A stretch of DNA of 64,000 bases. Source: Heterodontus francisci. Its lineage: Eukaryota. The stretch covers positions 27,302,149 through 27,366,148 of the forward strand of contig NC_090404.1 of NCBI RefSeq assembly GCF_036365525.1, read 5' to 3'. The position numbers and the translations under genes were made by a program. The notes below the pieces were generated by a model. It was not told the DNA's origin. It worked only from the letters and a program-made list of their open reading frames with translations, and made no database searches. Of this stretch, positions 9,893 to 64,000 are shown piece by piece (positions within the stretch are counted from its first letter, which is position 1; every line of letters begins with the position of its first letter).

Positions 9893-10788
9893 TTAGGAAT
9901 TATATTGAAGGAGTATTTTTACCGCATCCTTCAGCTCCTTTCTGAATTTAGTCTGTGACCCTGCATAAATACACGTGTTGGTACAGGAACTAAAGAGTTG
10001 AAGCATGTATCCACTTTCCTGCAGAATAAACTTTGGGTCATTGGAATTTGAACCTGTAGAATAGTTATTGTCTGTAATTTGCACAAATAGGAAATTTACA
10101 ACATACGTCAACCACAACAGAAGGAAACTGCCCGAGATGAGGAAGAGTAAAACAATGGACTTTTTCCGGCTTTCCATCTCTGGGTCACTCTGTTTCTTTC
10201 CATTGCTGTGGACTCGGAGACTCCTGCGAGCTCTACTGGCCACTAGGATGTGTCTGACTGTCAGAGCATTGAGCAGCAAAATCAGGATGAACGGGAGACA
10301 TGGAGTTAGAATACAGTCCAGCCAGTCAAACACTCTCCATGGAAGTGAAACATAATAGCTTTCTTTGATGTTGCAGTACCAGGGTACATTATTAATTATA
10401 TAGATAGCATCATACATGAAGTAGAAAGGGATATTTTTGAAACAGCAAAGCACGCCGACCATTCCTACAACCACAGCCGCCGTTTTCTCAGTGCAGTATC
10501 TCATTTTCAGCTCCGGGCAACAAATGGCTATAAAGCGATCGAATGCAAATGCGACTGTTAACCAAACGGAACTGTCTGTGGAAGCGTAGCTTAGGACACT
10601 AACGAGGCTACAGCCCGGAGTGGAGGAAAGGAAACTGAATGGGAAATAAATAGCACAAAGACGACTTAATATCACAGCGGTGATAATAACCAGTAGATCT
10701 GTCACTGCCATGGATATCAGGTACCGAGTGATACATCCTGAGAGACCACACCTTCCTCGGGACAGAATCATAACTGTCACCAAGTTAG
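9893..10788 (-). CDS. GPR139/GPR142-like class A GPCR, exon 2 (second half of TM1 to C-terminus)
   Basis: Open 296-aa frame with multiple TM helices, MAVTDLLV (TM2), AFDRFIAIC (DRY-type), TPCLPF (TM5) and SSCTNTCIY (NPxxY variant). A phase-1 acceptor with a pyrimidine tract (…CCCCCAACAG|CTAAC) is at 10789/10788. Confidence 0.9.
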
Positions 10789-11819
10789 CTGTTGGGGGTG
10801 GGGAGGGAGGAAGAGACAGAGAAGGAGAGAATCAATGATCAGACTCACACGTACAACATCAGATTGGTGGGAGACTGCTTTAAAATTTACAACACTGATA
10901 CTTGATTTAATGATTGAAGCTGATTGGTTTACCGACGGATAACTTATGTGTACTAAAAATGATCGTCCCATATAAAACTGGGACCAGAAATATAAAATAA
11001 TATCTAAGATTTATTTTTATCTTCATGCAAAATTGATATATTATAGAAGTAGAAGGAACACTGCCATATTAAAGTGTTCGGTAGACAAAATTGTTGCACT
11101 TATCATTGTCCCAGAAGGACCAAAGGCATGTTTTAACCTGAGGATCAGCACTTTGCAAGCATGGGGAATGGTGAGGAGGTGGGAATCCACGACCTACCAA
11201 AGCCACTCAGCACTCTGCAAGCGTGGAGCAAGGCGAGGAGACAGGCCTCCATGAACTATTACAGCCAGCCAGCACTCTGCAAGCGCGGGGTAAGGCGAGA
11301 AGATAGGCCTCTATGAACTACCACAGCCGGTATAGGGGTTGAACCCACGCTGTTGGCATTTTTATGCATTATGTTCTAGCCTTCTAGCCAACTGACCTAA
11401 CCAACCCCCAAACACATAAAATTGAATGCCAAAATGACTCTTGTAATTAATAACGAAATATTCTGAATTCATATTTAAACATGGTAAATAATGACAATAA
11501 GTAATTAGCATGAAGTATAATGATACTAAAATCAAGTGAATGGTAGGAAGTAAAACACGTGTAATAACAACTTTAAAATAAATATCAGAAGCTATTAAGA
11601 AATGACAACACCTTAAATGAACGACATTGATACAGTGCAGGTTTGGCTCCTGTGGAAACAGGTCAAGGAACATCAGCAGTTCTTTTACAGTGCAGCGACT
11701 CCTGTAATGGAGGGAGATGTAGCGGCCAGTGAGGTCCTACAAACAGTAGTGAGAACATTGACAAATTCCTCTGCACTTACTTCCGGTGGTGTTTGGGGGA
11801 GGAATGCTGTTTTTGGGAC

Positions 11820-18539: not shown

Positions 18540-18847
18540 ACCCCAGCCGGCAGGATGAACTTTCTCAAGTGCCCTCAGTAGTAACAGTGAGTGAAGGAGA
18601 TACTGTAGTGCTGTCCTGTAACTACCCCGCCACTTACACAGCCGCTAACCTATTCTGGTATGTACAGTACTCTGGAAAAGGCCTTCAGTATATGCTGGTC
18701 AGACATACTGCTGGGAATGAAGCGAACGCACCAGCCTTTACAGAGCGGTTTTCTGCTGTACAGGACAGAACGAACACAAATATCCCTTTAAACATTACAC
18801 ACACCCAGCTGTCTGACTCAGCCATGTATTACTGCGCCGCTATGTAG
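18540..18847 (+). CDS. TCR alpha/delta-type V segment exon (V1)
   Basis: Acceptor TTTCCAG|. V-set hallmarks: VVLSC, LFWYVQYSGKGLQY, RFS, LNIT, DSAMYYCA. Followed by a 23-RSS. Confidence 0.92.
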
Positions 18848-18886
18848 CACCACGTTCGAGGAACCCTTGACAGTGGTACAAAAACT
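18848..18886 (+). other. 23-RSS of V1
   Basis: CACCACG, 23-nt spacer, ACAAAAACT. Confidence 0.85.
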
Positions 18887-20504
18887 ACCAGTTCCAGATG
18901 CTGCTAGTTTTGTGACTTCTCTGCTTCAACAATTCACCACACATAAAGCCGATACAGTGGGCGGAGTTCACCGACTAATTGATGCAATGTGTTGTCAACA
19001 TTGGGACATCCTGAAATCACTAGAAAGGCACGATATAAACAAAACACCTTTCTTCATTTCAGTGTAGTTACTCTATAAGAAGTCATAATATTAAGGGAGC
19101 TCTTTTAAATCACCCCTTAATCTTTTTTGTTCCAGTTCCCTGGTCTGTCCACATATGTCCCTCATCCCTTGTATCATGCTTTGTCCCAATTGGCTACATA
19201 CCGTGAGTTCTGCACTGTGTGGGAGTGGACTCCTGTAACTCATTTGATGGACCACAAGCTTGAGGTCATTGTCCATCTCTGGGACTGTGCTGCTGGCGAT
19301 TGGGTTAACGACGGTGGTTGCACATAATGAAAGCCCTCGGATCACTATTCTGTATATAAATATTGATTTGTCAGTTAATAGCTCAAGTTGAAATTAAATA
19401 GTGTTTATACATAGTTATCTTCATCATTAATACAGAACTGAACGTCCTCTGGTGATCAGGATAACGAATAATAGTCGGCATTTCTTCAACAGGAGTTGAT
19501 ACCTCAGGTTAAGATTATTCAAATCGCTACTGTAAATTTGTATTAGAATTACTGATATAATTGACGTGCTGAGGGACATTCTGGTTCTCAGACTGGATCC
19601 CACTAAAGACCTGGTAAGAGCTACCTGTTGCAGACCTCACCACACCAATTGTCATCCTGGGGAAATGGTCTGCACAAATACTCCCTGATATCCATAAGTA
19701 ACCGTAATGTACACCAGAATATGCATTCAAACTCACAGTTCACTGTACCACCACAAACAGCGCTTTCCAATTCAACTACAATTAAAGTCCAGGGTTCATA
19801 AATAACACCAGGAAAGGACTTCTTTGTAACAGCTTAACTTTTGTGCCTCCACCTACTGGAGGGCATTTGGAACAAAGGGAATGTGCCGCCACTCTACACA
19901 GACTGAGAGATGGTCGGGACAAGAAAGAAAATTATTTCTGCCATAAATCTGATGCGTTATGATGAAAGGCCATCGATCTGAAACGTTAACTGCTTCTCTC
20001 CCCTCAGATCCTGCCGGAGCTGCGGAGTAGTTCTTGCACTTTTTTCCCCTCCTGCCATATACCAGCCTCACGGTGGCACCAAACCGCTTCATATTCCAAA
20101 TGCAGTGACTGCAGTATTTTGACTTCCTTGTTCAGTGTTTATCTTAAAAATATAGAAACATCTGTTGAATATCAGAGCTGCGACATGGGAAAATAGCAGC
20201 ACAAAGCAGTTTTACATCATCATTTCACATTAAGAACGGGTTTGTATAATGTTACAGCTTTGTCCTAACCATTTAAGGAACTTCGTCATTAGGGGTTATA
20301 GTGCTCTGGACAAAGTCTTGGCCTTCCTACACACGGGATGAATGTAATTGGTCAGTTTCACTTTGATCCATTGCAGTTCTTGCCTGCTTGGCTACCAAAG
20401 GAAAGCATAACACAGGAACATGGGAATAGAAGGAGGTCATTCATCCTCTCAAGCCTTTTCTGCCATTTAGTGAAAACCTGGAAGATCTGCATCCTTACTA
20501 CATA

Positions 20505-35803: not shown

Positions 35804-36132
35804 ATGTTGGGACTGCTTGGGGGTGTTTGCTTTCCTCCATTAATAACATTGGTTGTTACAGGTAAAGAAGAAGTTGTACAATCATTTCCATCACAGACTC
35901 CTGGTGAATGGAAAACCATATCGATAAACTGCCACACAACCATTCCGTTCTCTGTGATGTACTGGTACGTGCAGTCTCCAAACCAAAGCCCAAAGATGTT
36001 GATAATGGCATCGGAAAACGGTGAACGTAAAGGTCGATTTACAGCCGTCAGTCGAAGTTCAGAGAAGAGCAGCTCCCTGACTATCGTGGCTTTACATCTG
36101 TCGGACACCGCGATCTACTTCTGTGCCATACG
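35804..36132 (+). CDS. TCR alpha-type V segment (V3) with leader and V in one open frame
   Basis: MLGLLGGVCFPPLITLVVTG runs directly into KEEVVQS...ISINC...MYWYVQSPNQSPKMLI...GRFT...SSLTI...DTAIYFCAI. Followed by a 23-RSS. Confidence 0.9.
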
Positions 36133-36171
36133 CACAGTGTTAAAAGGAGTGACAAGGTCCGTACATAAACC
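36133..36171 (+). other. 23-RSS of V3
   Basis: Consensus CACAGTG, 23-nt spacer, ACATAAACC. Confidence 0.93.
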
Positions 36172-56118: not shown

Positions 56119-57105
56119 GTGATGTTTTGATTAAGAGAAAACCATTGGTCTATTTACCCTTGCATTCGAAATGTCTTCTGAGCTTCCTTATGGTGATTCT
56201 AGATCTAATCGCCCTTTATCTCATTTAGTAGCATGAATTTTTCCACGTTTTATAAACATTAGCTTGGCTTTCTGTTTCATCCTCCATCAGTGGAAACGTG
56301 TCCACGACAAGTTCAATAAGTTCCTTTTATAATACAATTCACAATTTCCTTCAATGCCCAACGTTAACTCTTCTCATCTGGTTTATTGACTTTCGGCCTT
56401 ACTTCGAAGGCACTGAACTGCAGAAGCACGGCCGGATGGAGATTGATGAGCATCCATGGACCTGCCTTTATTACAAAAGGAAAACAGTGAAAAAGCAGCA
56501 GGTTACACTTGGAAACACGTAAATGGCTCACAGAAGCTTCAAAACTTAAAAATGCATCTGGTGTATATGTGTATACATATGTAACTTTGGTTATAATGTG
56601 TGCTTTATCATGCTGTAATACCTGTTCGAAAGAGAGAAAGGGGACAAGGAGGAGTAAAAAAAATACTAAGAGAGACAACTGGAGAAACAGCAAGAGATGT
56701 TGAGAGAGAGAGAGAGAGAGAGGAGGCGGGTGGAGAGAGGCAGAGAGCAACAGAGGCAAACTGTCAGGGAGATAAAAATATGGAAAGAGAGTGAGGGTGA
56801 GAATGATAGAGCTTCAGTAGAAGAGAAAGCTGAACTGACAGATTGACCTTCGACTTCCCATTTCCAATTGTTGGCAAATTCTGTCAGGAACTCAGCATGC
56901 TAGCAGTCAGTGAGTGCAATGGACTTTACCCCATCTGATAGTCGGCTTAAATTTACAGAACAGGGAAACACCGTATCAGAAAAAAAACATTCATTTTCCA
57001 CCTGATATCACTAAGGAGAACACACAAATAAAACAGCAGATAACAGCAGATAATTGAGAGAGGATCAGCCTACAGCTCATGCACTGCAGTCTCAGGGGAT
57101 GGAGA

Positions 57106-57456
57106 CTGGAGGGGGAGATGAAAGGGAAACGGACAAGTAAAGGTGAACAAAGGAGAGGCCTGATGAACCACCAGTAGTCATGTCTGATATAAAGCAGACA
57201 AGGGTGAAAATTTCATGTGTACGTGCCTTGCTAATGACTGGATAGTATAATGTACACCTGCTTAGAATGCAATAGGGTAACCTAGCTATGTACACGCAGC
57301 CGCAATTGGACAGAGAGCAGAGAAAAGACTTTGTAACAGAATGATTGGCAAATGCAAACGAGCTGCTGTTGTAAAATGGTATAAGAAAGTTTTTGGAACT
57401 ATTTGGGGAGTTTGTATGCCATATTGTAAGGGTACGGTCTCCCCGGCATATGCTTG
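57106..57456 (+). mobile_element. Upstream LTR, truncated at both ends
   Basis: Direct-repeat homology to 63075-63425. Confidence 0.85.
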
Positions 57457-59380
57457 TGGCCTAACTAAAGTTCTGTACAGCTGCAGTATGAATTGCCAAT
57501 TTTTATACTCTATGCCCCGACCGATGAAGGCAAGCATGCCATATGCCTTCTTGACTACCTTATCCACCTGCGTTGCCACTTTCAGTGATCTGTGGACCTG
57601 TACGCCCAGATCTCTCTGCCTGTCAATATTTCTAAGGGTTCTGCCATTTACTGTATACCTCCTACCTGCATTAGACCTTCCAAAATGCATTACCTCACAT
57701 TTGTCCGGATTAAACTCCATCTGCAATTTCTCCACCCAAGTCTCCAACTGATCTATATCCTGCTGTATCCTCTGACAATCCTCATCACTATCTGCAACTC
57801 CACCGACCTTTGTGTCATCCGCAAACTTACTAATCATACCAGCTACATTTTCCTCCAAATCATTCATATATACTACAAACAGCAAAGGTCCCAGCACTGA
57901 TCCCTGCGGAACACCACTAGTCACAGCCGTCCATTCAGAAAAGCACCCTTCCACTGCTACCCTCTGTCTTCTTTGACTGAGCCAGTTCTGTATCCATCTT
58001 GCCAGCTCACCTCTGATCCCGTGTGACTTCACCTTTTGTACCAGTCTGCCATGAGAGACCTTGTCAAAGGCTTTACTGAAGTCCATATAGATAGCATCCA
58101 CTGCCCTTCCTTCATCAATCATCTTCGTCACTTCCTCAAAAAACTCAATCAAATTAGTCAATTAATCAATTAATCAAACGACCTCCTCTTCACAAAACCA
58201 TACTGCCTCTCGCTGATAAGTTCGTTTGTTTCCAAATGGGAGTAAATCCTGTCCCGTAGAATCCTCTCTAATAATTTCCCTACCACTGACCTAAGGCTTG
58301 CCGGCCTATAATTTTTTGGATTATCCTTGCTACCCTTCTTAAACAAAGGAACAACATTGGCTATTCTCCAGTCCTCTGGGACCTCACCTGAAGCCAATGA
58401 GGATGCAAAGCGTTCTGTCAAGGCCCCAGCAATTTCTTCCCTTGCCTCCCTTAGTATTCTGGGGTGGATCCCATCAGGCCCTGGGGACTTTTCCACCTTA
58501 ATGCTTTGCAAGACACCCAACACCTCCTCCTTTTTGATAATGAGATGACTGAGACTATCTACACTCCCTTCCCTAGGCTCATCATCCATCAAATCCTTCT
58601 CCTTGGTGAATACTGATGCAAAGTACTCATTTCGTACCTCACCCATTTCCTCTGGCTCCACACATAGATTCCCTTCTCAGTCCTTGAGTGGGCCAACCCT
58701 TTCCCTAGTTACCCTCTTGCTCTTTATATATGTATAAAAAGCCGTGGGATTATCCTTAATCCTGTTTGCCAATGACTTTTCATGACCCCTTTTAGCCCTT
58801 CTGACTCCTTGCTTAAGTTCCTTCCTACTGTCTTTATATTCCTCAAGGGATTCGTCTGTTCCTAGCCTTCCAGCCCTTACGAATGCTTCCTTTTTCTTTT
58901 TGACGAGGCTCACAATATCCCACGTTAACCAAGGTTCTGGAAACTTGCCAAACTTATCCTTCTTCCTCACAGGAACATGCTGGTCCTGGATTCTAATCAA
59001 CTGACATTTGAAGGACTCCCACATGTCAGATGTTGATTTACCCTCAAACAGCTGCCCCCAATCTAAATTCTTCAATTCCTGCCTAATATTGTTACAATTA
59101 GCCTTCCCCCAATTTAGCACCTTCACCCGAGAACTACTCTTATCCTTATCCACAAGTACCTTAAAACTTATGGAATTATGGTCACTGTTCCCGAAATGCT
59201 CCCGTACTGAAACTTCGACCACCTGGCCGGGCTCATTCCCCAATACCAGGTCCAGTACGACCCCATCCCTAGGTGGACTATCTACATATTGTTTCAAGAA
59301 GCCCTCCTGAATGATCCTTACAAATTCTGCCCCATCCAATCCCATTTGCACTAAGTGAGTCCCAGTCAATATAGGGGAAG
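57457..59380 (-). mobile_element. Young CR1 (HER1-like) ORF2 fragment nested in the LTR element, 3' end missing
   Basis: ORFs 58677-59369, 58170-58661 and 57286-58161 (KFADDTK). Near identical to 47445-48045. Confidence 0.92.
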
Positions 59381-60861
59381 TGAAAAAGTAAAGGCGATAT
59401 GCGAAAGATTAAAGTTTGTATAAGAAGCTGGTGTTAAATATTTTGTTGCAAGAATGTTAAATAACTTTTTCTTTACTTTTTGGTTTTATTGCAGTCATTT
59501 GAAAAGGCGCCTGAAGAAAGAATAAGGAAAATGACGTAATTTACCTATCGTTTCAAAAATAAAGCACGTGCTATTCTGTTCTGTGTGTAGTTAATAAATA
59601 TTATGTTAATAAGTCTGAATTAAGTTTATCCTATTAAGGTTAACTAACCTGTTAAGTTGATAAAAACTTTTAAATATTTATTGCCGTGAACTGAAATTTG
59701 GAATCATCTTGGTCTCTAAACAAATCCTTGGATTAGAAACCTCTTATAAAAATGCTAAAAGTTTGGAAACAATGGGAGTTTAATCTAAAATACTGTCTTC
59801 TCTAATGGAGATGGTTTCCTTTGAAGTTGATAATGTTACTAATGATTTTGTTGTTTTAAAAACCGAAGGATACCAATAAAAACAACAGTTTAAAATGGAG
59901 TTCAGTTCTTTTCAGTCGGGAAAAAAAGGGTTACGTAAAGCTACGGAGCTGAGAATGTTTTGCTCTGCTCCTTGAAGACACGCAAAGAAATTAACCTTGC
60001 TGCAGCTATCTTTATCAAGGAGACAAAGTGCTTCAGAAGGAGAGATAGTTGCAAGCTCTTCTGTCCCTAATGTAAAAAAAATGTCACCAAGTCTGGGCAT
60101 AAGAAATTGGAATCGATAAACAAAATTAAATTGATATGAGTGGTTGTTTAAAGCACTGAAAAGAAAATTTATCCGACATTTAAGAGGACCATCAACGTTT
60201 AGAAAACAACAAAACAAAAACAGTCTAGGTGGTTCCTAACTATAAAACACAATGTTTCTTTTGGGGAGATATTAAATGGAACATTAGTAAATCCTGTCCC
60301 TCCAACAACACTGTTATTTGAATTTGGAATAATCTGAGATGTCAAAAGTCCAGTGTAATTTAGCAAGTTACTTTTAAGGAATTAAAATGTCACCTAAGAT
60401 AGAGAAAAAAATACAAACAATATATAGTAATACCTGGAATCAAATGGGAATGTTTGATTTCTGTTTTAAGGAATTATGAATATTGGATTGTAAAGGTTGT
60501 CCAGGGTTCAAAATGAAATAGAATTTTAATTAATGGGAATTGGCAATGAGATAGGGCTGATTCAAGTGCTAATAAAGGGATTCTGGGGATAAACAATGGT
60601 GAAATTAGAATTCAAACAGTTAAATTAATATAGTGTGGAATTTCCAAGAACTTAACAATAATCAGGAAAATTAAAGACATTAGTAATGACGGGAAGGGCG
60701 ATGAGCTTGCCAAGGGATGTTGTCGCAGATAGTGAGGAAACAGGACTCGCAAGAGAAAGGGTTAAAAGATTTTTGAAGGAGATGTGCAGACAGCCGCATG
60801 AGCGGAGGCAGGAGGTTATTTAGAAACAGACTTGGAAGAGAAACAGGCAAATGTGCCTGTT

Positions 60862-61015
60862 GTGGGAGACAAAGTAATGGTCAAAGTTATGCTGAGAAAA
60901 CCAGGATTTGTGCCTATGTGGATAGGACCTTACAGGGTAATCACAACCAGCGACATTGTGCCTGTGTGGACATTGGAGGGAAGGGACGCTGGAAACACTG
61001 GACGCAGCTGAAACA
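60862..61015 (+). pseudogene. Integrase C-terminal (GPY/F) remnant
   Basis: VGDKVMVKVMLRKPGFVPMWIGPYRVI, then after a frameshift CACVDIGGKGRWKHWTQLK. Confidence 0.75.
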
Positions 61016-61095
61016 TGTAACTGACTGATTTTTGTTTGGAAGAATTTAATCACGGCTGACCAGTGACGACTGGAAGGCCCATTATATCTAATAGA

Positions 61096-62864
61096 ATGGT
61101 ATCTACTATACTAATACTCCTGGGACTGGAGATCAGTGAAGGCTTGGGCCATCCAACAGCCATCAGATTATATTCCATAGAGGAATGGACGGGGAACTCG
61201 TAAAACCCTACAGTTGGTTTAACAAGCGAGATATCGACACCAAGGACACAAGTAACGACCCCCCCCCCCACCCCCACCCTGCTCCCTTGTCTGACACTAA
61301 AGCCTGGGCCAGAGAATGGGCTAGTGCTGACAAAAACTAGAAAGGCTTTGCATGATAATGTACACCATGAGCTGGTACCCATTGTCCTAAATATTTCTGA
61401 CATTAAATCATCCCAGTGGTTTCTGGTGGAAACCCAAACAATGTATAAAGCATTACTAAAACAGGTAATAACAGAGGCATCTTGGTTCAGCGCTGGGCGG
61501 TGACCAAGTGGTGCAGTCCCCGCACAGGGGAGGTACCGACGGAAACGTAGCCTATTGAATGATGCCACCACGCTGTTTAACACAGGAACATCAGTTGTAA
61601 ATACTATTGATCTGGCCACAGTGGAACAAAAGGTCCGAACGCTACTTCAGACAGGGACAACAGATCCAGAGTGGACAGCTCAGTATGGACCAAAGCCTGA
61701 TGTGGTACTTAAGAGTCGTGCGCATACCATTAATGAACTAATTGGTGACAGGCACTACATCAAAGTGGATGCGGTTAGGAACTATGTCTGCAGCAGGTAT
61801 GGATCTTGGATTCTTGAGCAGACTCGGGAGTGCTGGAGACAGCTCCACGAGGCTGAAATTCTCCTGTGGATATCAAACACCCACTGATCTAACTTATCTC
61901 GTCACCAGAAACAACCAGGACCTAACTGGTGGCCATCTCAGAGGTTTAACACATGTGTATAAAACTGATGAAAGATGTATTGTCAATAACAGCCTTATGA
62001 TAGGTGTGGTCTTGGCAATTCCAGTAATACCAGAATCAATACACAGTAAAATCCTATACGAAGTAGCGAACATCAGGGTAATAACAGAAGATTATTACAT
62101 AAAATATCAATATACCGCCATATGCCATAGAATTAGAGGGAAAATGATAAGTACTACTTTAGTTAGGTGTAGTATAGGAGCCCCTGCCGTAGTGTGTTTG
62201 CACCCGATATATATAGAACCGGGGAGGCCCAATCTGGGTTTAATGCAGCAGTCAATTTCACAATGGAAGCAATACGGGCAGTGATGGAACCGACCAATGT
62301 GGCATACGTGGGGAAAGGGAGATATTGTCTCACTACAACACAACAACAATATCAGTACGGACACAACCGATCCTGTATAACTAATCGCCTGGTATGTATA
62401 CATCCACAAGTACCAGCAAGAGTGGGAAAGGTAGAACTGGTGGAGATATATAAAAGGGAAAATGTCAGTCTGCAGGTCACAGACAGCATGAAAGAAAACC
62501 TCATGCAGTACTTGAGACAGTTCTCATACTCTATCCCACCATTACCCCCATACCTCACAGCCATCCTTGAGGGGTACATAAGGTGTATTACACCTTACAA
62601 CAACAGACCGAAGAACTGAAAGAAGAGGTCGAGCAGATCAATGACACCACATGGTGGGAGGACTTATGGAATTGGGGTTCAAACATACAGATACCAGCCT
62701 GGGCCAGGATCGCCTCCCACATCTTGGTTATTTCCCAAGTAGTGATGGTCGTGTATTTGACGTGCTTAATCCACAGGGTTAGAATGACACATGCGGTGAG
62801 ACCAGTCATATGGGGGCACGAGCACTCGGGGATTAAAAAGGTAGTTCATGAGCCCTTTCTGTAG
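61096..62864 (+). pseudogene. env: env-like class I fusion glycoprotein, about 590 codons with stops and frameshifts
   Basis: Signal-like MVSTILILLGL, a Pro/Thr stretch, furin site RRKR at 61537-61548, heptad-like VNTIDLATVEQKV, a Cys-containing middle region, YYTLQQQTEELKEEVEQIN, Trp-rich WWEDLWNW and a TM segment (ILVISQVVMVVYLTCLI). Confidence 0.8.
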
Positions 62865-63029
62865 GACCAACCCATATCGACGGTGTAGTCAATTGCCTTT
62901 ACACACCTAAGCTCGATACCTGGCCAGTATCAATGAGTGACAGACAGCAAAGAGAGTTGAGCACATCAATATACAGGTATTTGGCAAACTTGGGGAGGGC
63001 CAAGGGCCAAAAAGGTCGGAGGCGGGGGG

Positions 63030-63501
63030 TGTGACTGAATGGGGAGGCGAAAGGTCGGGGGAGGGGACAGAAGGGTGAGGCAAAAGGGAAAAGGACAAGT
63101 AGCAGTGAACAAAGGAGAAGGCCTGATGAACCACGAGTAGTCATGTCTGACATAAAGAAGACAAGGGTGAAAGTTTCATGTGTACGTGCCTTGCTAATGA
63201 TTGGATAGTATAATGTGCACCTGCTTAGAAGGTAATAGGGTAACCTAGCTATGTACAAGTAGACACAACTGGATAGAGATAATGGAGAGAAGACTGTGTA
63301 ACAGAATGATTGGTAAATGCAAATGAGCTGTTATCTGTAAAATAGTATAAGAATTATATTTTTGGAAATATTCTGAGAGTGCGTACACCATCTTGCATGT
63401 GTACGGTCTCCCCTGCATATGCTTGAAATAAACCGGTAAACAAAGCGCTTGAGTCTCGTGTGATCTATCGCAGAATCAGAGGGTGACTGAACTCCCTTTC
63501 A
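63030..63501 (+). mobile_element. Downstream (3') LTR, 472 bp
   Basis: Preceded by the purine tract GGAGGCGGGGGG. Termini TG...TTTCA. Contains ATTGG, ATGCAAAT, TATAAG and AATAAA (63427-63432). Confidence 0.85.
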
Positions 63502-64000
63502 GAGGCAAACCTTAAAATCGGGCAGAACAGCAAATAACTGAGAGAGGATCAGTCGACAGTCCATTCATTGCATTCCCATGGGATGGAGGCTATCCCTAAA
63601 ATCAAACATAACAACAGATAACTGAGAGAGGATTAGCCAGATGTTCAGCCACTGCAGTGCAGGAGGGTGGAGGTTATCCCCAACGGTGTGGCCTCAGACT
63701 GTGAAGCTTGAGTTCCATATTCTGTGTGCATCATAATTCCAGCTGGAACGGTGTCAGCAGAAATTGGTGTCTTGATTTCATAAAACACGCTGCATGTTCA
63801 TTGTGATAACTTGGTTGACTAAAGATTGAGATTATCACAAAACGTAGAATAGATTGTATACTTTGTAACGAATAATCTCGTTTTGTAAATCACCACCAAC
63901 CCCCCATCCAAGTTTCCACAGCTACAATGAAATAAAATTCCCTCAGCTGATTTCATCAGCTAACCCACACCAGTGCGAATTCAGAATTAATGTAAACTCG

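Follow-up and report, generated by a model that had tools for sequence, protein, structure and literature searches.

A degraded LTR element in the shark Heterodontus francisci with an env pseudogene of a predicted paramyxovirus-F-type family

The window analysed here is a stretch of 64,000 nucleotides of Heterodontus francisci DNA (NCBI RefSeq assembly GCF_036365525.1, contig NC_090404.1, positions 27,302,149 to 27,366,148 of the forward strand), and at 57106..63501 it was originally predicted to hold an LTR element with an early-cleaved, paramyxovirus-F-like envelope. The locus raises the questions of whether this is a retroviral element, whether its Env is of the F type, and whether it belongs to the lokiretroviruses, to another retroviral lineage, or to an element that captured an F-type gene independently. 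The parts of the element, in window coordinates, are as follows:

57102..57106, + strand: left copy of the 5-bp target-site duplication (GAGAC), interrupting a host 84-bp repeat unit
57107..57456, + strand: 5' LTR, starting with TG and truncated at its 3' end by a LINE (from alignment to the 3' LTR)
57457..59386, - strand: CR1-type LINE fragment, non-viral, inserted in the element (RVT_1, E 7.6e-24)
59387..60680, + strand: AT-rich interior, 31% GC
60680..61028, + strand: integrase C-terminal remnant in three frames (motifs read by eye in the translation)
61096..62864, + strand: env pseudogene of about 589 codons, of the predicted F-type family (profile tiling and tblastn)
63050..63066, + strand: polypurine tract, separated from the 3' LTR by two bases
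63069..63501, + strand: 3' LTR of 433 bp, ending in CA at 63501
63502..63506, + strand: right copy of the target-site duplication (GAGGC), on the opposite flank of the element

Both junctions and the 5-bp duplication are clearly delimited because the flanking pentamers, GAGAC and GAGGC (identical at 4 of 5 bases), interrupt an 84-bp host repeat, which the element splits within one unit and whose adjacent units read GGATGGAGGCTATCCC. The 5' LTR aligned to 63069-63425 with 86.3% identity over 350 columns (K2P 0.153), and the 3' LTR contains TATAA at 63346 and AATAAA at 63427. The 5' LTR lacks its final ~76 bp, and the primer-binding site is absent too; a search for this missing segment gave no match exceeding shuffles. 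These data confirm that the element is a real retroviral LTR element, and, with an LTR divergence of 0.15, it is an old copy within a multi-copy family.

A second, similar purine tract lies at 63009-63029. A 3' LTR start at 63030, after this first of the two tracts, was considered and discarded because the left junction and the target duplication fit 63069.

The predicted order of LTR, AT-rich interior, integrase tail, env, purine tract and LTR was recovered, with the parts near the positions first assigned to them; however, 57457-59386 is not viral interior but the CR1-type LINE, of ~1.9 kb, which cuts the 5' LTR and had been overlooked. Its edges were set from loose ends at 57455 and 59386 together with very high depth. 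Diverged copies of the remaining interior (59387..60680) recur elsewhere in the genome, and read depths, which are not copy numbers, suggest many related copies. No gag, pro or RT was recognisable by Pfam in the three forward frames of this interior. The integrase tail was identified by eye from the motifs MTGR, GDKVMV, WIGPY and WxHxxQLK; neither Pfam nor PDB sequence searches confirmed it, and as a query in the word-indexed protein search it returned zero matches. Scans of viral and metagenome contigs, for which the alignment queries had no conserved stretch, found no full element or linked pol. The sole locus that they returned (L001) was rejected as a chance similarity over 19 residues in a contig that looks prokaryotic.

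The env reading frame is disrupted by two in-frame stops (61201 and 61501) and three frameshifts (near 61883-61914, 62206-62212 and 62571-62577), and the present copy is unable to make any of its proteins. Three features can be placed within it:

61096..61150, + strand: signal-peptide-like short hydrophobic start (Kyte-Doolittle 2.29 over 12 residues)
61537..61548, + strand: furin-type cleavage site RRKR, aligned in homologs
62715..62771, + strand: transmembrane anchor, with a Trp-rich stretch and a coiled-coil-like segment upstream of it

RRKR ends codon 151 of 589 and leaves 438 codons downstream, which bears out the predicted cleavage at about residue 150 of about 590 with an anchored subunit of ~440 aa. 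The fusion-peptide-like segment that follows RRKR is weakly hydrophobic (mean KD 0.47). About 45 residues precede the F2-like part in the window Env, and several relatives have 130-180 extra residues there. A profile of natural homologs covered env with four matches in collinear order (E 8e-41, 2e-16, 1e-32 and 8e-21), far above chance, and tblastn of the window env against the relative P0010 gave E values of 7e-12 and 2e-7.

The nearest homologs of the window Env come from H. francisci itself, and the env family is also present in C. punctatum, C. plagiosum and S. torazame. With a phmmer query of which about a third was off-frame, 17 of the 18 named Env relatives were from sharks or skates and one was from a frog; Env of teleosts, lamprey or coelacanth and bird OVEX1 were each absent (0/18) from these named matches. 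In the word-indexed protein search, a single-frame read-through of env gave zero matches, and the same search with an alignment returned P0010 and P0029 only. A tree of one unbroken 122-residue piece left the window unplaced, its nearest rows being P0004 from Heterodontus and P0005 from Heptranchias; 4 of the 19 BLAST matches, covering fewer than 80 columns, were omitted from this tree, and P0001, P0008, P0013 and P0026 were excluded as self or near-duplicates. Among sequencing runs, no RNA run was listed as a holder. In a run presumed to be RNA, env-related contigs were 81-88% alike and represent other copies, uninformative on this one; a DNA contig corresponded to 61369-61967 without gaps and with a single difference, and may derive from the source sample.

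Pfam assigned the env pieces to no family at the curated cut-off, and Fusion_gly, Baculo_F and TLV_coat each failed to identify Env by sequence. Across 24 relatives the sole domain above cut-off was an F-box in a chimeric gene model. A PDB sequence search returned coiled-coil and chance matches only, and one window piece submitted to the ESM Atlas gave no usable match. The late cleavage, short TM subunit, ISD and CX6CC that mark gamma/epsilon-type Env were likewise not found: CX6CC occurs in 0 of 28 relatives, and the one ISD-like match, LQNR in P0003, lies in the N-terminal part. A gamma- or epsilon-type TM had been named at the outset as one result that would overturn the F-type assignment, and the motifs do not point to one.

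The evidence on fold comes from models of two relatives, P0010 and P0028, which are linked to the window Env by sequence. The AlphaFold model of P0010, an intact relative, had a mean pLDDT of 61, with most ten-residue blocks at 70-93 over residues 181-250 and 371-600; pTM was low for the two relatives' models (0.44 and 0.34). All 43 rows listed by Foldseek for P0010 against PDB were paramyxovirus or pneumovirus F (best E 7.9e-12). With VIA-align, the best match of P0010 was NDV F (Z 10.4, rmsd 21.8, 368 aligned), and hMPV F (Z 8.4, rmsd 6.7, 297 aligned) and foamy Env (Z 7.9, rmsd 5.5, 267 aligned) were also matched. For P0028, a closer relative, Foldseek gave 18 matches in BFVD at E<=1e-3, the best of them at 4e-7 and most of them F-type glycoproteins, and entry A0A384ZVF2 ranked 3rd and 4th in the P0010/P0028 BFVD searches; a wide VIA-align search with the P0028 model returned generic coiled coils only (Z<=6.7). 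Identity to viral F proteins is 10-16%. These models support the prediction that the Env family is a paramyxovirus-F-type class I fusion protein, with an F fold of three domains to which both subunits contribute, and the forecast of an F-type, early-cleaved Env in a cartilaginous-fish ERV agrees with the Foldseek matches and with the lack of CX6CC in the 28 relatives. In structure, the relative's model matches paramyxovirus and pneumovirus F best, and their F2/F1 proportions are equal to those of the Env; they differ in sequence (10-15% identity), and the window Env is encoded by an LTR element.

The ESM Atlas neighbours of P0028 were Baculo_F (0.94) and Fusion_gly (0.93), both marked as weak on account of low recognition. 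A Gypsy-type retrotransposon that captured an F gene independently, in the manner of errantiviruses or from a fish paramyxovirus, could account for the nearest Atlas cluster being Baculo_F-type arthropod Env and for one relative that matched Baculo_F at E 0.001, below cut-off; GPY integrase tails are found in Gypsy elements too. The identity to viral F of just 10-16% argues against such a capture, a survey, in its accessible part, reported no vertebrate homologs of invertebrate errantiviruses, and the Env and integrase motifs point toward vertebrate retroviral relatives. We consider this origin highly improbable, and the independent capture from a paramyxovirus that had been put forward is not needed as an explanation.

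The predicted F-type fold is common to foamy Env and, weakly, to models of the walleye epsilonretrovirus Env: the BFVD matches of the P0010 model include feline foamy Env (E 1.3e-7), WEHV1 (E 1.7e-7) and WDSV (E 1.4e-6). Because foamy Env shares the fold, described within a retrovirus in PMC11468914, an F fold is not diagnostic of lokiretroviruses. A foamy-like cartilaginous-fish ERV whose Env has been reduced would share the fold and the long C-terminal subunit and would fit the feline foamy match, and the title of a published paper refers to endogenous foamy viruses of cartilaginous fish. Foamy Env as described in PMC11468914, however, is ~980 aa long and has two furin sites, an RBD insertion and a long leader that is anchored in the membrane, whereas the window Env spans ~589 codons, with a short signal peptide and a single furin site, and Foldseek ranks paramyxovirus and pneumovirus F above foamy Env; a foamy-like origin is very unlikely.

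Lokiretroviruses are defined by an RT clade sister to all other retroviruses, a Tether plus RNase H, a CGIN1-allied integrase and an optional smc, and their Env is F-like with early RxKR cleavage and a similar length (PMC7947760). The loki Env layout of signal peptide, RxKR, fusion peptide, coiled coil and TM is present in the window Env, with the fold seen through its relatives. PGPENGLVL and LFNTGTSVVN had been picked out as loki-like, and they do have counterparts, PGP-x-G-I-V-L and LFS-x-G-x-S-A-x-N, in the published loki consensi; the motifs in common are PGP-x-G-x-VL, F-x-x-G-x-S-x-x-N and G-x-[IV]P. A cartilaginous-fish lokiretrovirus would explain this layout, the length class and these motifs. 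However, the motifs specific to the shark family (Y-x-G-x-G-x-YC, C-x-x-YG and the Trp-rich motif) are missing from the loki consensi, and the hydrophobic fusion peptide of loki Env is longer (PMC7947760, in its accessible part). In the part of the loki supplement that was searched, where line breaks can split motifs, five exact Env-family motifs gave 0 matches and the positive control HYLCP gave 5. These motifs, eight loki Env entries compared by eye, and the 18 named homologs, none of them from a teleost, lamprey or coelacanth, all place the Env outside the loki sequence family. The integrase tail is, by eye, shorter than that of Loki-Bsp. The original loki screen of Wang and Han was positive in 0 of 6 chondrichthyan genomes (PMC7947760, as far as its accessible text reports), and these loki-negative genomes include C. 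punctatum, C. plagiosum and S. torazame, three carriers of this env family. Since the family motifs are absent from the loki supplement and visible in OVEX1 ORF3, and the fold is shared with foamy Env, the suggested loki membership did not hold up, and we regard it as quite unlikely.

The element probably belongs instead to the OVEX1/SnRV-like branch (chicken OVEX1, CrocERV37-39 and snakehead retrovirus); because it has no RT, we infer this placement from sequence motifs. The OVEX1, CrocERV37 and loki comparisons are unscored and were made by eye on sequences in paper supplements. OVEX1 ORF3 and the Env family have a series of motifs in the same order: the cleavage site and, after it, G-x-x-x-x-N-S-x-[DN], a Cys before a G-x-x-P hinge, a paired Cys region, an exact YVGKG-x-x-C, and WW-x-x-x-x-x-W before the TM. 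OVEX1 is a domesticated ERV of chicken and zebra finch whose ORF3 has, in the accessible text of its report, a post-cleavage subunit of ~445 residues with neither ISD nor CX6CC; it differs in being intact, LTR-less and 873 aa long, in its extended N-terminal part and in its lack of a signal peptide (PMC2717909). In that text its authors did not recognise the ORF3 fold, left its envelope identity uncertain in 2009, and regarded the locus as a composite in which ORF3 and gag-pol may stem from different viruses (PMC2717909).

The integrase tail has a spacing like that of CrocERV37 (PMC4299795), sharing WIGP and the D-x-G-x-x-G-x-W-x-H-x-x-QLK spacing, with 8 of 16 positions identical by eye. The RT of OVEX1 falls near SnRV/class III and CrocERV37-39 cluster with OVEX1 (PMC2717909, PMC4299795, in their accessible parts). 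As described in PMC4299795, a 5-bp duplication suits ERV3/ERV4 and CrocERV38 and not typical ERV1, and the duplications given for CrocERV37 and 39 are of 4 bp; an integrase tail of the OVEX1/CrocERV37-39 type with a 4-5-bp duplication is present in the element and is weakly diagnostic. Snakehead retrovirus and clade Huo form a deep retroviral branch that is present in cartilaginous fish (PMC4422223, PMC6001957 and PMC12193657, in part), and the integrase tail of the elephant-shark CmiERV-I resembles that of the window at GD-x-VMV-x-V and F-x-P-x-W-x-GP; CmiERV-I differs in its gamma-type Env (PMC4422223).

CmiERV lineage I is SnRV-like, yet its Env is of the gamma type (with ISD and CX6CC, by eye), so env type does not track pol type in the SnRV branch. 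A recombinant between an epsilon-like or other pol and an F-type env gained by env swapping would be in keeping with the swapping evident in CmiERV lineage I, with the fold matches of the WEHV1 and WDSV Env models (E 1.7e-7 and 1.4e-6), with the epsilon-type ERVs that sharks have, and with the 'TT' after GPY, which recalls class I integrase tails such as that of CrocERV1. The duplication, however, is 5-bp and not 4-bp, and the end of the integrase tail is closer to CrocERV37 than to CrocERV1; such a recombinant is unlikely.

The locus is best explained as a broken, internally deleted provirus, likely in the shark germ line and likely of OVEX1/CrocERV37-39/SnRV-like descent. It likely either integrated by means of helper enzymes when already deleted or suffered the deletion later. 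The ancestral Env would have been synthesised as a precursor with a signal peptide, furin would have cleaved it after residue ~151, and its short front subunit would have stayed in the folded head, like F2. The N-terminus of the ~440-residue anchored subunit would have entered the target membrane, and its two helical repeats would have refolded into a hairpin trimer.

One intact member of the Env family, of 739-754 aa, is common to Heterodontus, Chiloscyllium and Scyliorhinus, which represent three shark orders, and its sequences align without gaps at 85-88% identity; this gene, with the accessions GCC29952.1, XP_072333160.1 and XP_067889054.1, is a candidate domesticated envelope gene. Endogenous env genes of sharks, some of them intact, have been described as chondrichthyan syncytin-like Envs (bioRxiv 10.64898/2026.05.06.723177); that screen, as far as its accessible text states, required ISD and CX6-7C and offered synteny evidence within one genus. 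Because of this requirement, it could not report the F-type shark family.

F-type retroviral envelopes are already in print for lokiretroviruses and foamy viruses. In literature searches whose scope excluded most subscription papers, among them the shark foamy-virus paper, we found no paper on F-type Env in shark ERVs and none calling OVEX1 ORF3 F-like. It is possible, as a tentative proposal that we hold to be more doubtful than the placement itself, that the F-type Env was the ancestral retroviral envelope (retained in loki, foamy, OVEX1/SnRV-like and walleye epsilon viruses) with the gamma/beta type arising later, that the shark family was domesticated before the orders split, and that OVEX1 ORF3 is a second domesticated member. 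The locus itself is a dead fossil, and the interest rests with the Env family. If the three-order gene is domesticated, it would represent a very old envelope capture, invisible to ISD- and syncytin-based screens; if the placement is true, OVEX1 ORF3 would gain a fold, and the F fold would be spread over the base of the retrovirus tree, which would make the question of the ancestral Env testable.

The features of the window, including the decayed provirus and its env pseudogene, are as follows.

9893-10831, minus strand: rhodopsin-family GPCR in a single frame (7tm_1, E 2e-20)
About 18550-18900, plus strand: T-cell-receptor-like V segment, stop after the second cysteine
35850-36171, plus strand: T-cell-receptor-like V segment (V-set, E 4e-11)
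57107-63501: provirus, LTR to LTR
57457-59386, minus strand: CR1-type LINE (RVT_1, E 7.6e-24)
60680-61028: integrase-like tail, recognised from motifs alone
61201 and 61501: in-frame stops in env
62715-62771: env transmembrane (TM) segment
63050-63066: purine tract, then two bases, then the 3' LTR
3' LTR: 433 bp, containing TATAA and AATAAA, with a CA terminus

The V segment near 35963 is followed by a recombination signal with a 23-bp spacer at 36133, and the provirus is possibly situated within or close to an antigen-receptor locus. The original prediction of an LTR element with an integrase tail, env and a purine tract was borne out, but it had missed the LINE inserted in the element. The insertion point lies within a single unit of a host 84-bp repeat, and because the flanks, GAGAC (left) and GAGGC (right), match the GAGGC of neighbouring units, the two junctions are fixed, as is a 5-bp target duplication. 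Three diverged units of this repeat flank the insertion (57029-57107 and 63513-63680). In a pairwise alignment the LTRs are 86.3% identical across 350 columns (28 transitions, 20 transversions, K2P 0.153); with the yearly per-site substitution rates of 2.2e-9 and 2.2e-10 in PMC4422223, the insertion dates to 35-347 million years ago, a spread that leaves only "old" as a safe age. Downstream of the LINE, neither the primer site nor the final ~76 bp of the 5' LTR was found (alignment score 22 against a shuffle mean of 22), and Pfam searches in three frames detected no gag, protease or RT in the interior at 59387-60680 (GC 31%). Contigs related to this AT-rich interior are far more numerous than those for env or the LTRs, and it may be common to a larger non-autonomous family. 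Contigs from sequencing runs containing the window DNA include many diverged relatives of interior, env and LTR, consistent with a multi-copy family. Similar purine tracts stand in tandem 5' of the 3' LTR (63009-63029 and 63050-63066), with TG after the first.

The env gene starts with ATG at 61096, and its furin site, RRKR, ends codon 151 with 438 codons beyond, in agreement with the predicted early cleavage and long anchored subunit. The reading frame is broken by three frameshifts as well as the stops, and a profile built from 21 natural relatives aligns to env as four collinear pieces, which lie in frames 1, 2, 1 and 3 (E 7.7e-41, 1.9e-16, 1e-32 and 7.8e-21, in order). When the window env was compared by phmmer with 1.84 billion representatives, 24 matches were obtained at E<=0.001, 18 of them named to species: 17 elasmobranch (eight species: seven sharks, one skate) and one frog, Pelodytes, with no teleost or lamprey. 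A gamma/epsilon-type TM subunit or a cellular protein, which would have spoken against the prediction, was not indicated; CX6CC occurs in 0 of 28 family proteins. Y-x-G-x-G-x-[YC] is present in 15 of the 28, many of the remaining 13 being fragments. Heterodontus francisci proteins share 44-55% identity with the best-matching piece of the window env. Two database gene models join an env piece to a host gene, Heterodontus fbxo15 isoform X3 (P0014) and a Pristiophorus Niban-1-like gene (P0021); they could reflect exonised env or chimeric annotation.

The fold was assessed on two relatives, P0010 and P0028, rather than on the window's broken protein. The model of P0010 (739 aa, Chiloscyllium punctatum, intact; model mean pLDDT 61, pTM 0.44) has a confident core, and all 43 PDB rows listed by Foldseek belong to F of paramyxo- or pneumoviruses, the best at E 7.9e-12, which favours the F-type envelope originally proposed. 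VIA-align placed NDV F at the top (Z 10.4, rmsd 21.8, 368 aligned). The model of P0028, a closer relative lacking the front subunit (pLDDT 64, pTM 0.34), again matched F-type proteins in Foldseek (best E 4.2e-7), but VIA-align returned generic helices only. Judging from these models, the env family would work like F: as in F-type proteins, furin cleavage would free the long anchored subunit at its N-terminus, which would enter the target membrane, and the subunit would then refold into a hairpin trimer, the short front subunit remaining part of the head. About 45 residues separate the signal peptide from the F2-like start in the window env, and P0010, P0018, P0025 and P0003, all relatives of it, have 130-180 more before that start. 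This N-terminal part is labelled Ig-like by UniRef in P0010, whose model is unconfident there, and gives a weak V-set match in P0025 (E 0.045).

Matches of the P0010 model in BFVD included lispivirus, baculovirus and paramyxovirus F-type proteins. Capture of an F gene by a Gypsy element is highly improbable. Feline foamy Env was also matched (E 1.3e-7), as were predicted structures of walleye epsilonretrovirus Envs with low TM-scores (WEHV1 1.7e-7, WDSV 1.4e-6; Q9WHI8, A4GTG3), and foamy Env scored Z 7.9-8.0 in VIA-align. A foamy-like element is very unlikely. F-like Env has been published for lokiretroviruses (PMC7947760) and foamy viruses (PMC11468914), and because foamy Env has this fold, the fold is no lokiretrovirus marker.

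The lokiretrovirus reading of the original prediction fared less well than its F-type reading. The PGP and post-cleavage motifs it pointed to do have counterparts in published lokiretrovirus Env consensi (PMC7947760), but the family's Trp-rich, C-x-x-YG and Y-x-G-x-G-x-YC motifs are missing from the eight entries compared by eye, and five exact family motifs had no match in the searched part of the supplement, where a control gave five. Furthermore, the named matches include no teleost or lamprey, and none of six chondrichthyan genomes was positive in the original screen (PMC7947760), although three of the six, C. punctatum, C. plagiosum and S. torazame, carry the window's env family. The element is thus probably not a lokiretrovirus, that assignment being quite unlikely.

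Since the element lacks RT and no linked pol was found, its placement is indirect; from sequence likeness, an OVEX1/SnRV-like retrovirus is the fairly likely identity. Chicken OVEX1 ORF3 (PMC2717909 supplement 4), read by eye and unscored, has the family's motifs in order, including YVGKG in exact form with a cysteine after it and a pre-TM stretch that contains WW, and a post-cleavage subunit of ~445 residues against 438 codons here. Zebra finch ORF3 likewise seems, by eye, to belong to the F-type Env family. The OVEX1 authors noted that ORF3 lacks ISD and CX6CC and did not settle what it is; the RT they placed near SnRV and class III (PMC2717909). CrocERV37-39 cluster with OVEX1, and the CrocERV37 integrase tail shares WIGP and 8 of 16 terminal positions with the window's integrase tail, by eye (PMC4299795). 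However, the OVEX1, CrocERV37 and lokiretrovirus comparisons all carry no scores, OVEX1 is also missing from the phmmer matches, and 4-bp duplications are listed for two of three crocodilian groups (PMC4299795). Also against this placement, OVEX1 itself is possibly composite (PMC2717909), and in the SnRV-like CmiERV lineage I the Env, judged by eye, is gamma-type (PMC4422223). An element with a swapped env and another pol is unlikely.

Three intact family proteins, GCC29952.1 (P0010, Orectolobiformes), XP_072333160.1 (P0029, Carcharhiniformes) and XP_067889054.1 (P0030, Heterodontiformes), are 84.8-87.8% identical with zero gaps over 734-754 residues, retain the furin site and TM, and form a supported clade with short branches (98/99). 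Two further intact members from outside the named sharks, P0018 (KAM8960540.1, Pelodytes ibericus, 723 aa) and P0025 (749 aa), group loosely with them (90/95); the remaining relatives are fragments of roughly 20-70% identity. The three orders diverged well over 100 million years ago, and therefore a domesticated F-type envelope gene, still a candidate on protein comparison, is the simplest reading, with recent cross-species infection as the alternative. A 2026 chondrichthyan syncytin screen could not have reported this gene because it demanded ISD and CX6-7C (bioRxiv 2026.05.06.723177). No literature on F-type Env in shark endogenous retroviruses was found in a search mostly outside subscription journals. 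The window copy is no longer functional, and the gene by which it could be placed is gone; its env family has a bearing on which envelope was ancestral in retroviruses and leads to a candidate for an anciently domesticated gene in sharks.
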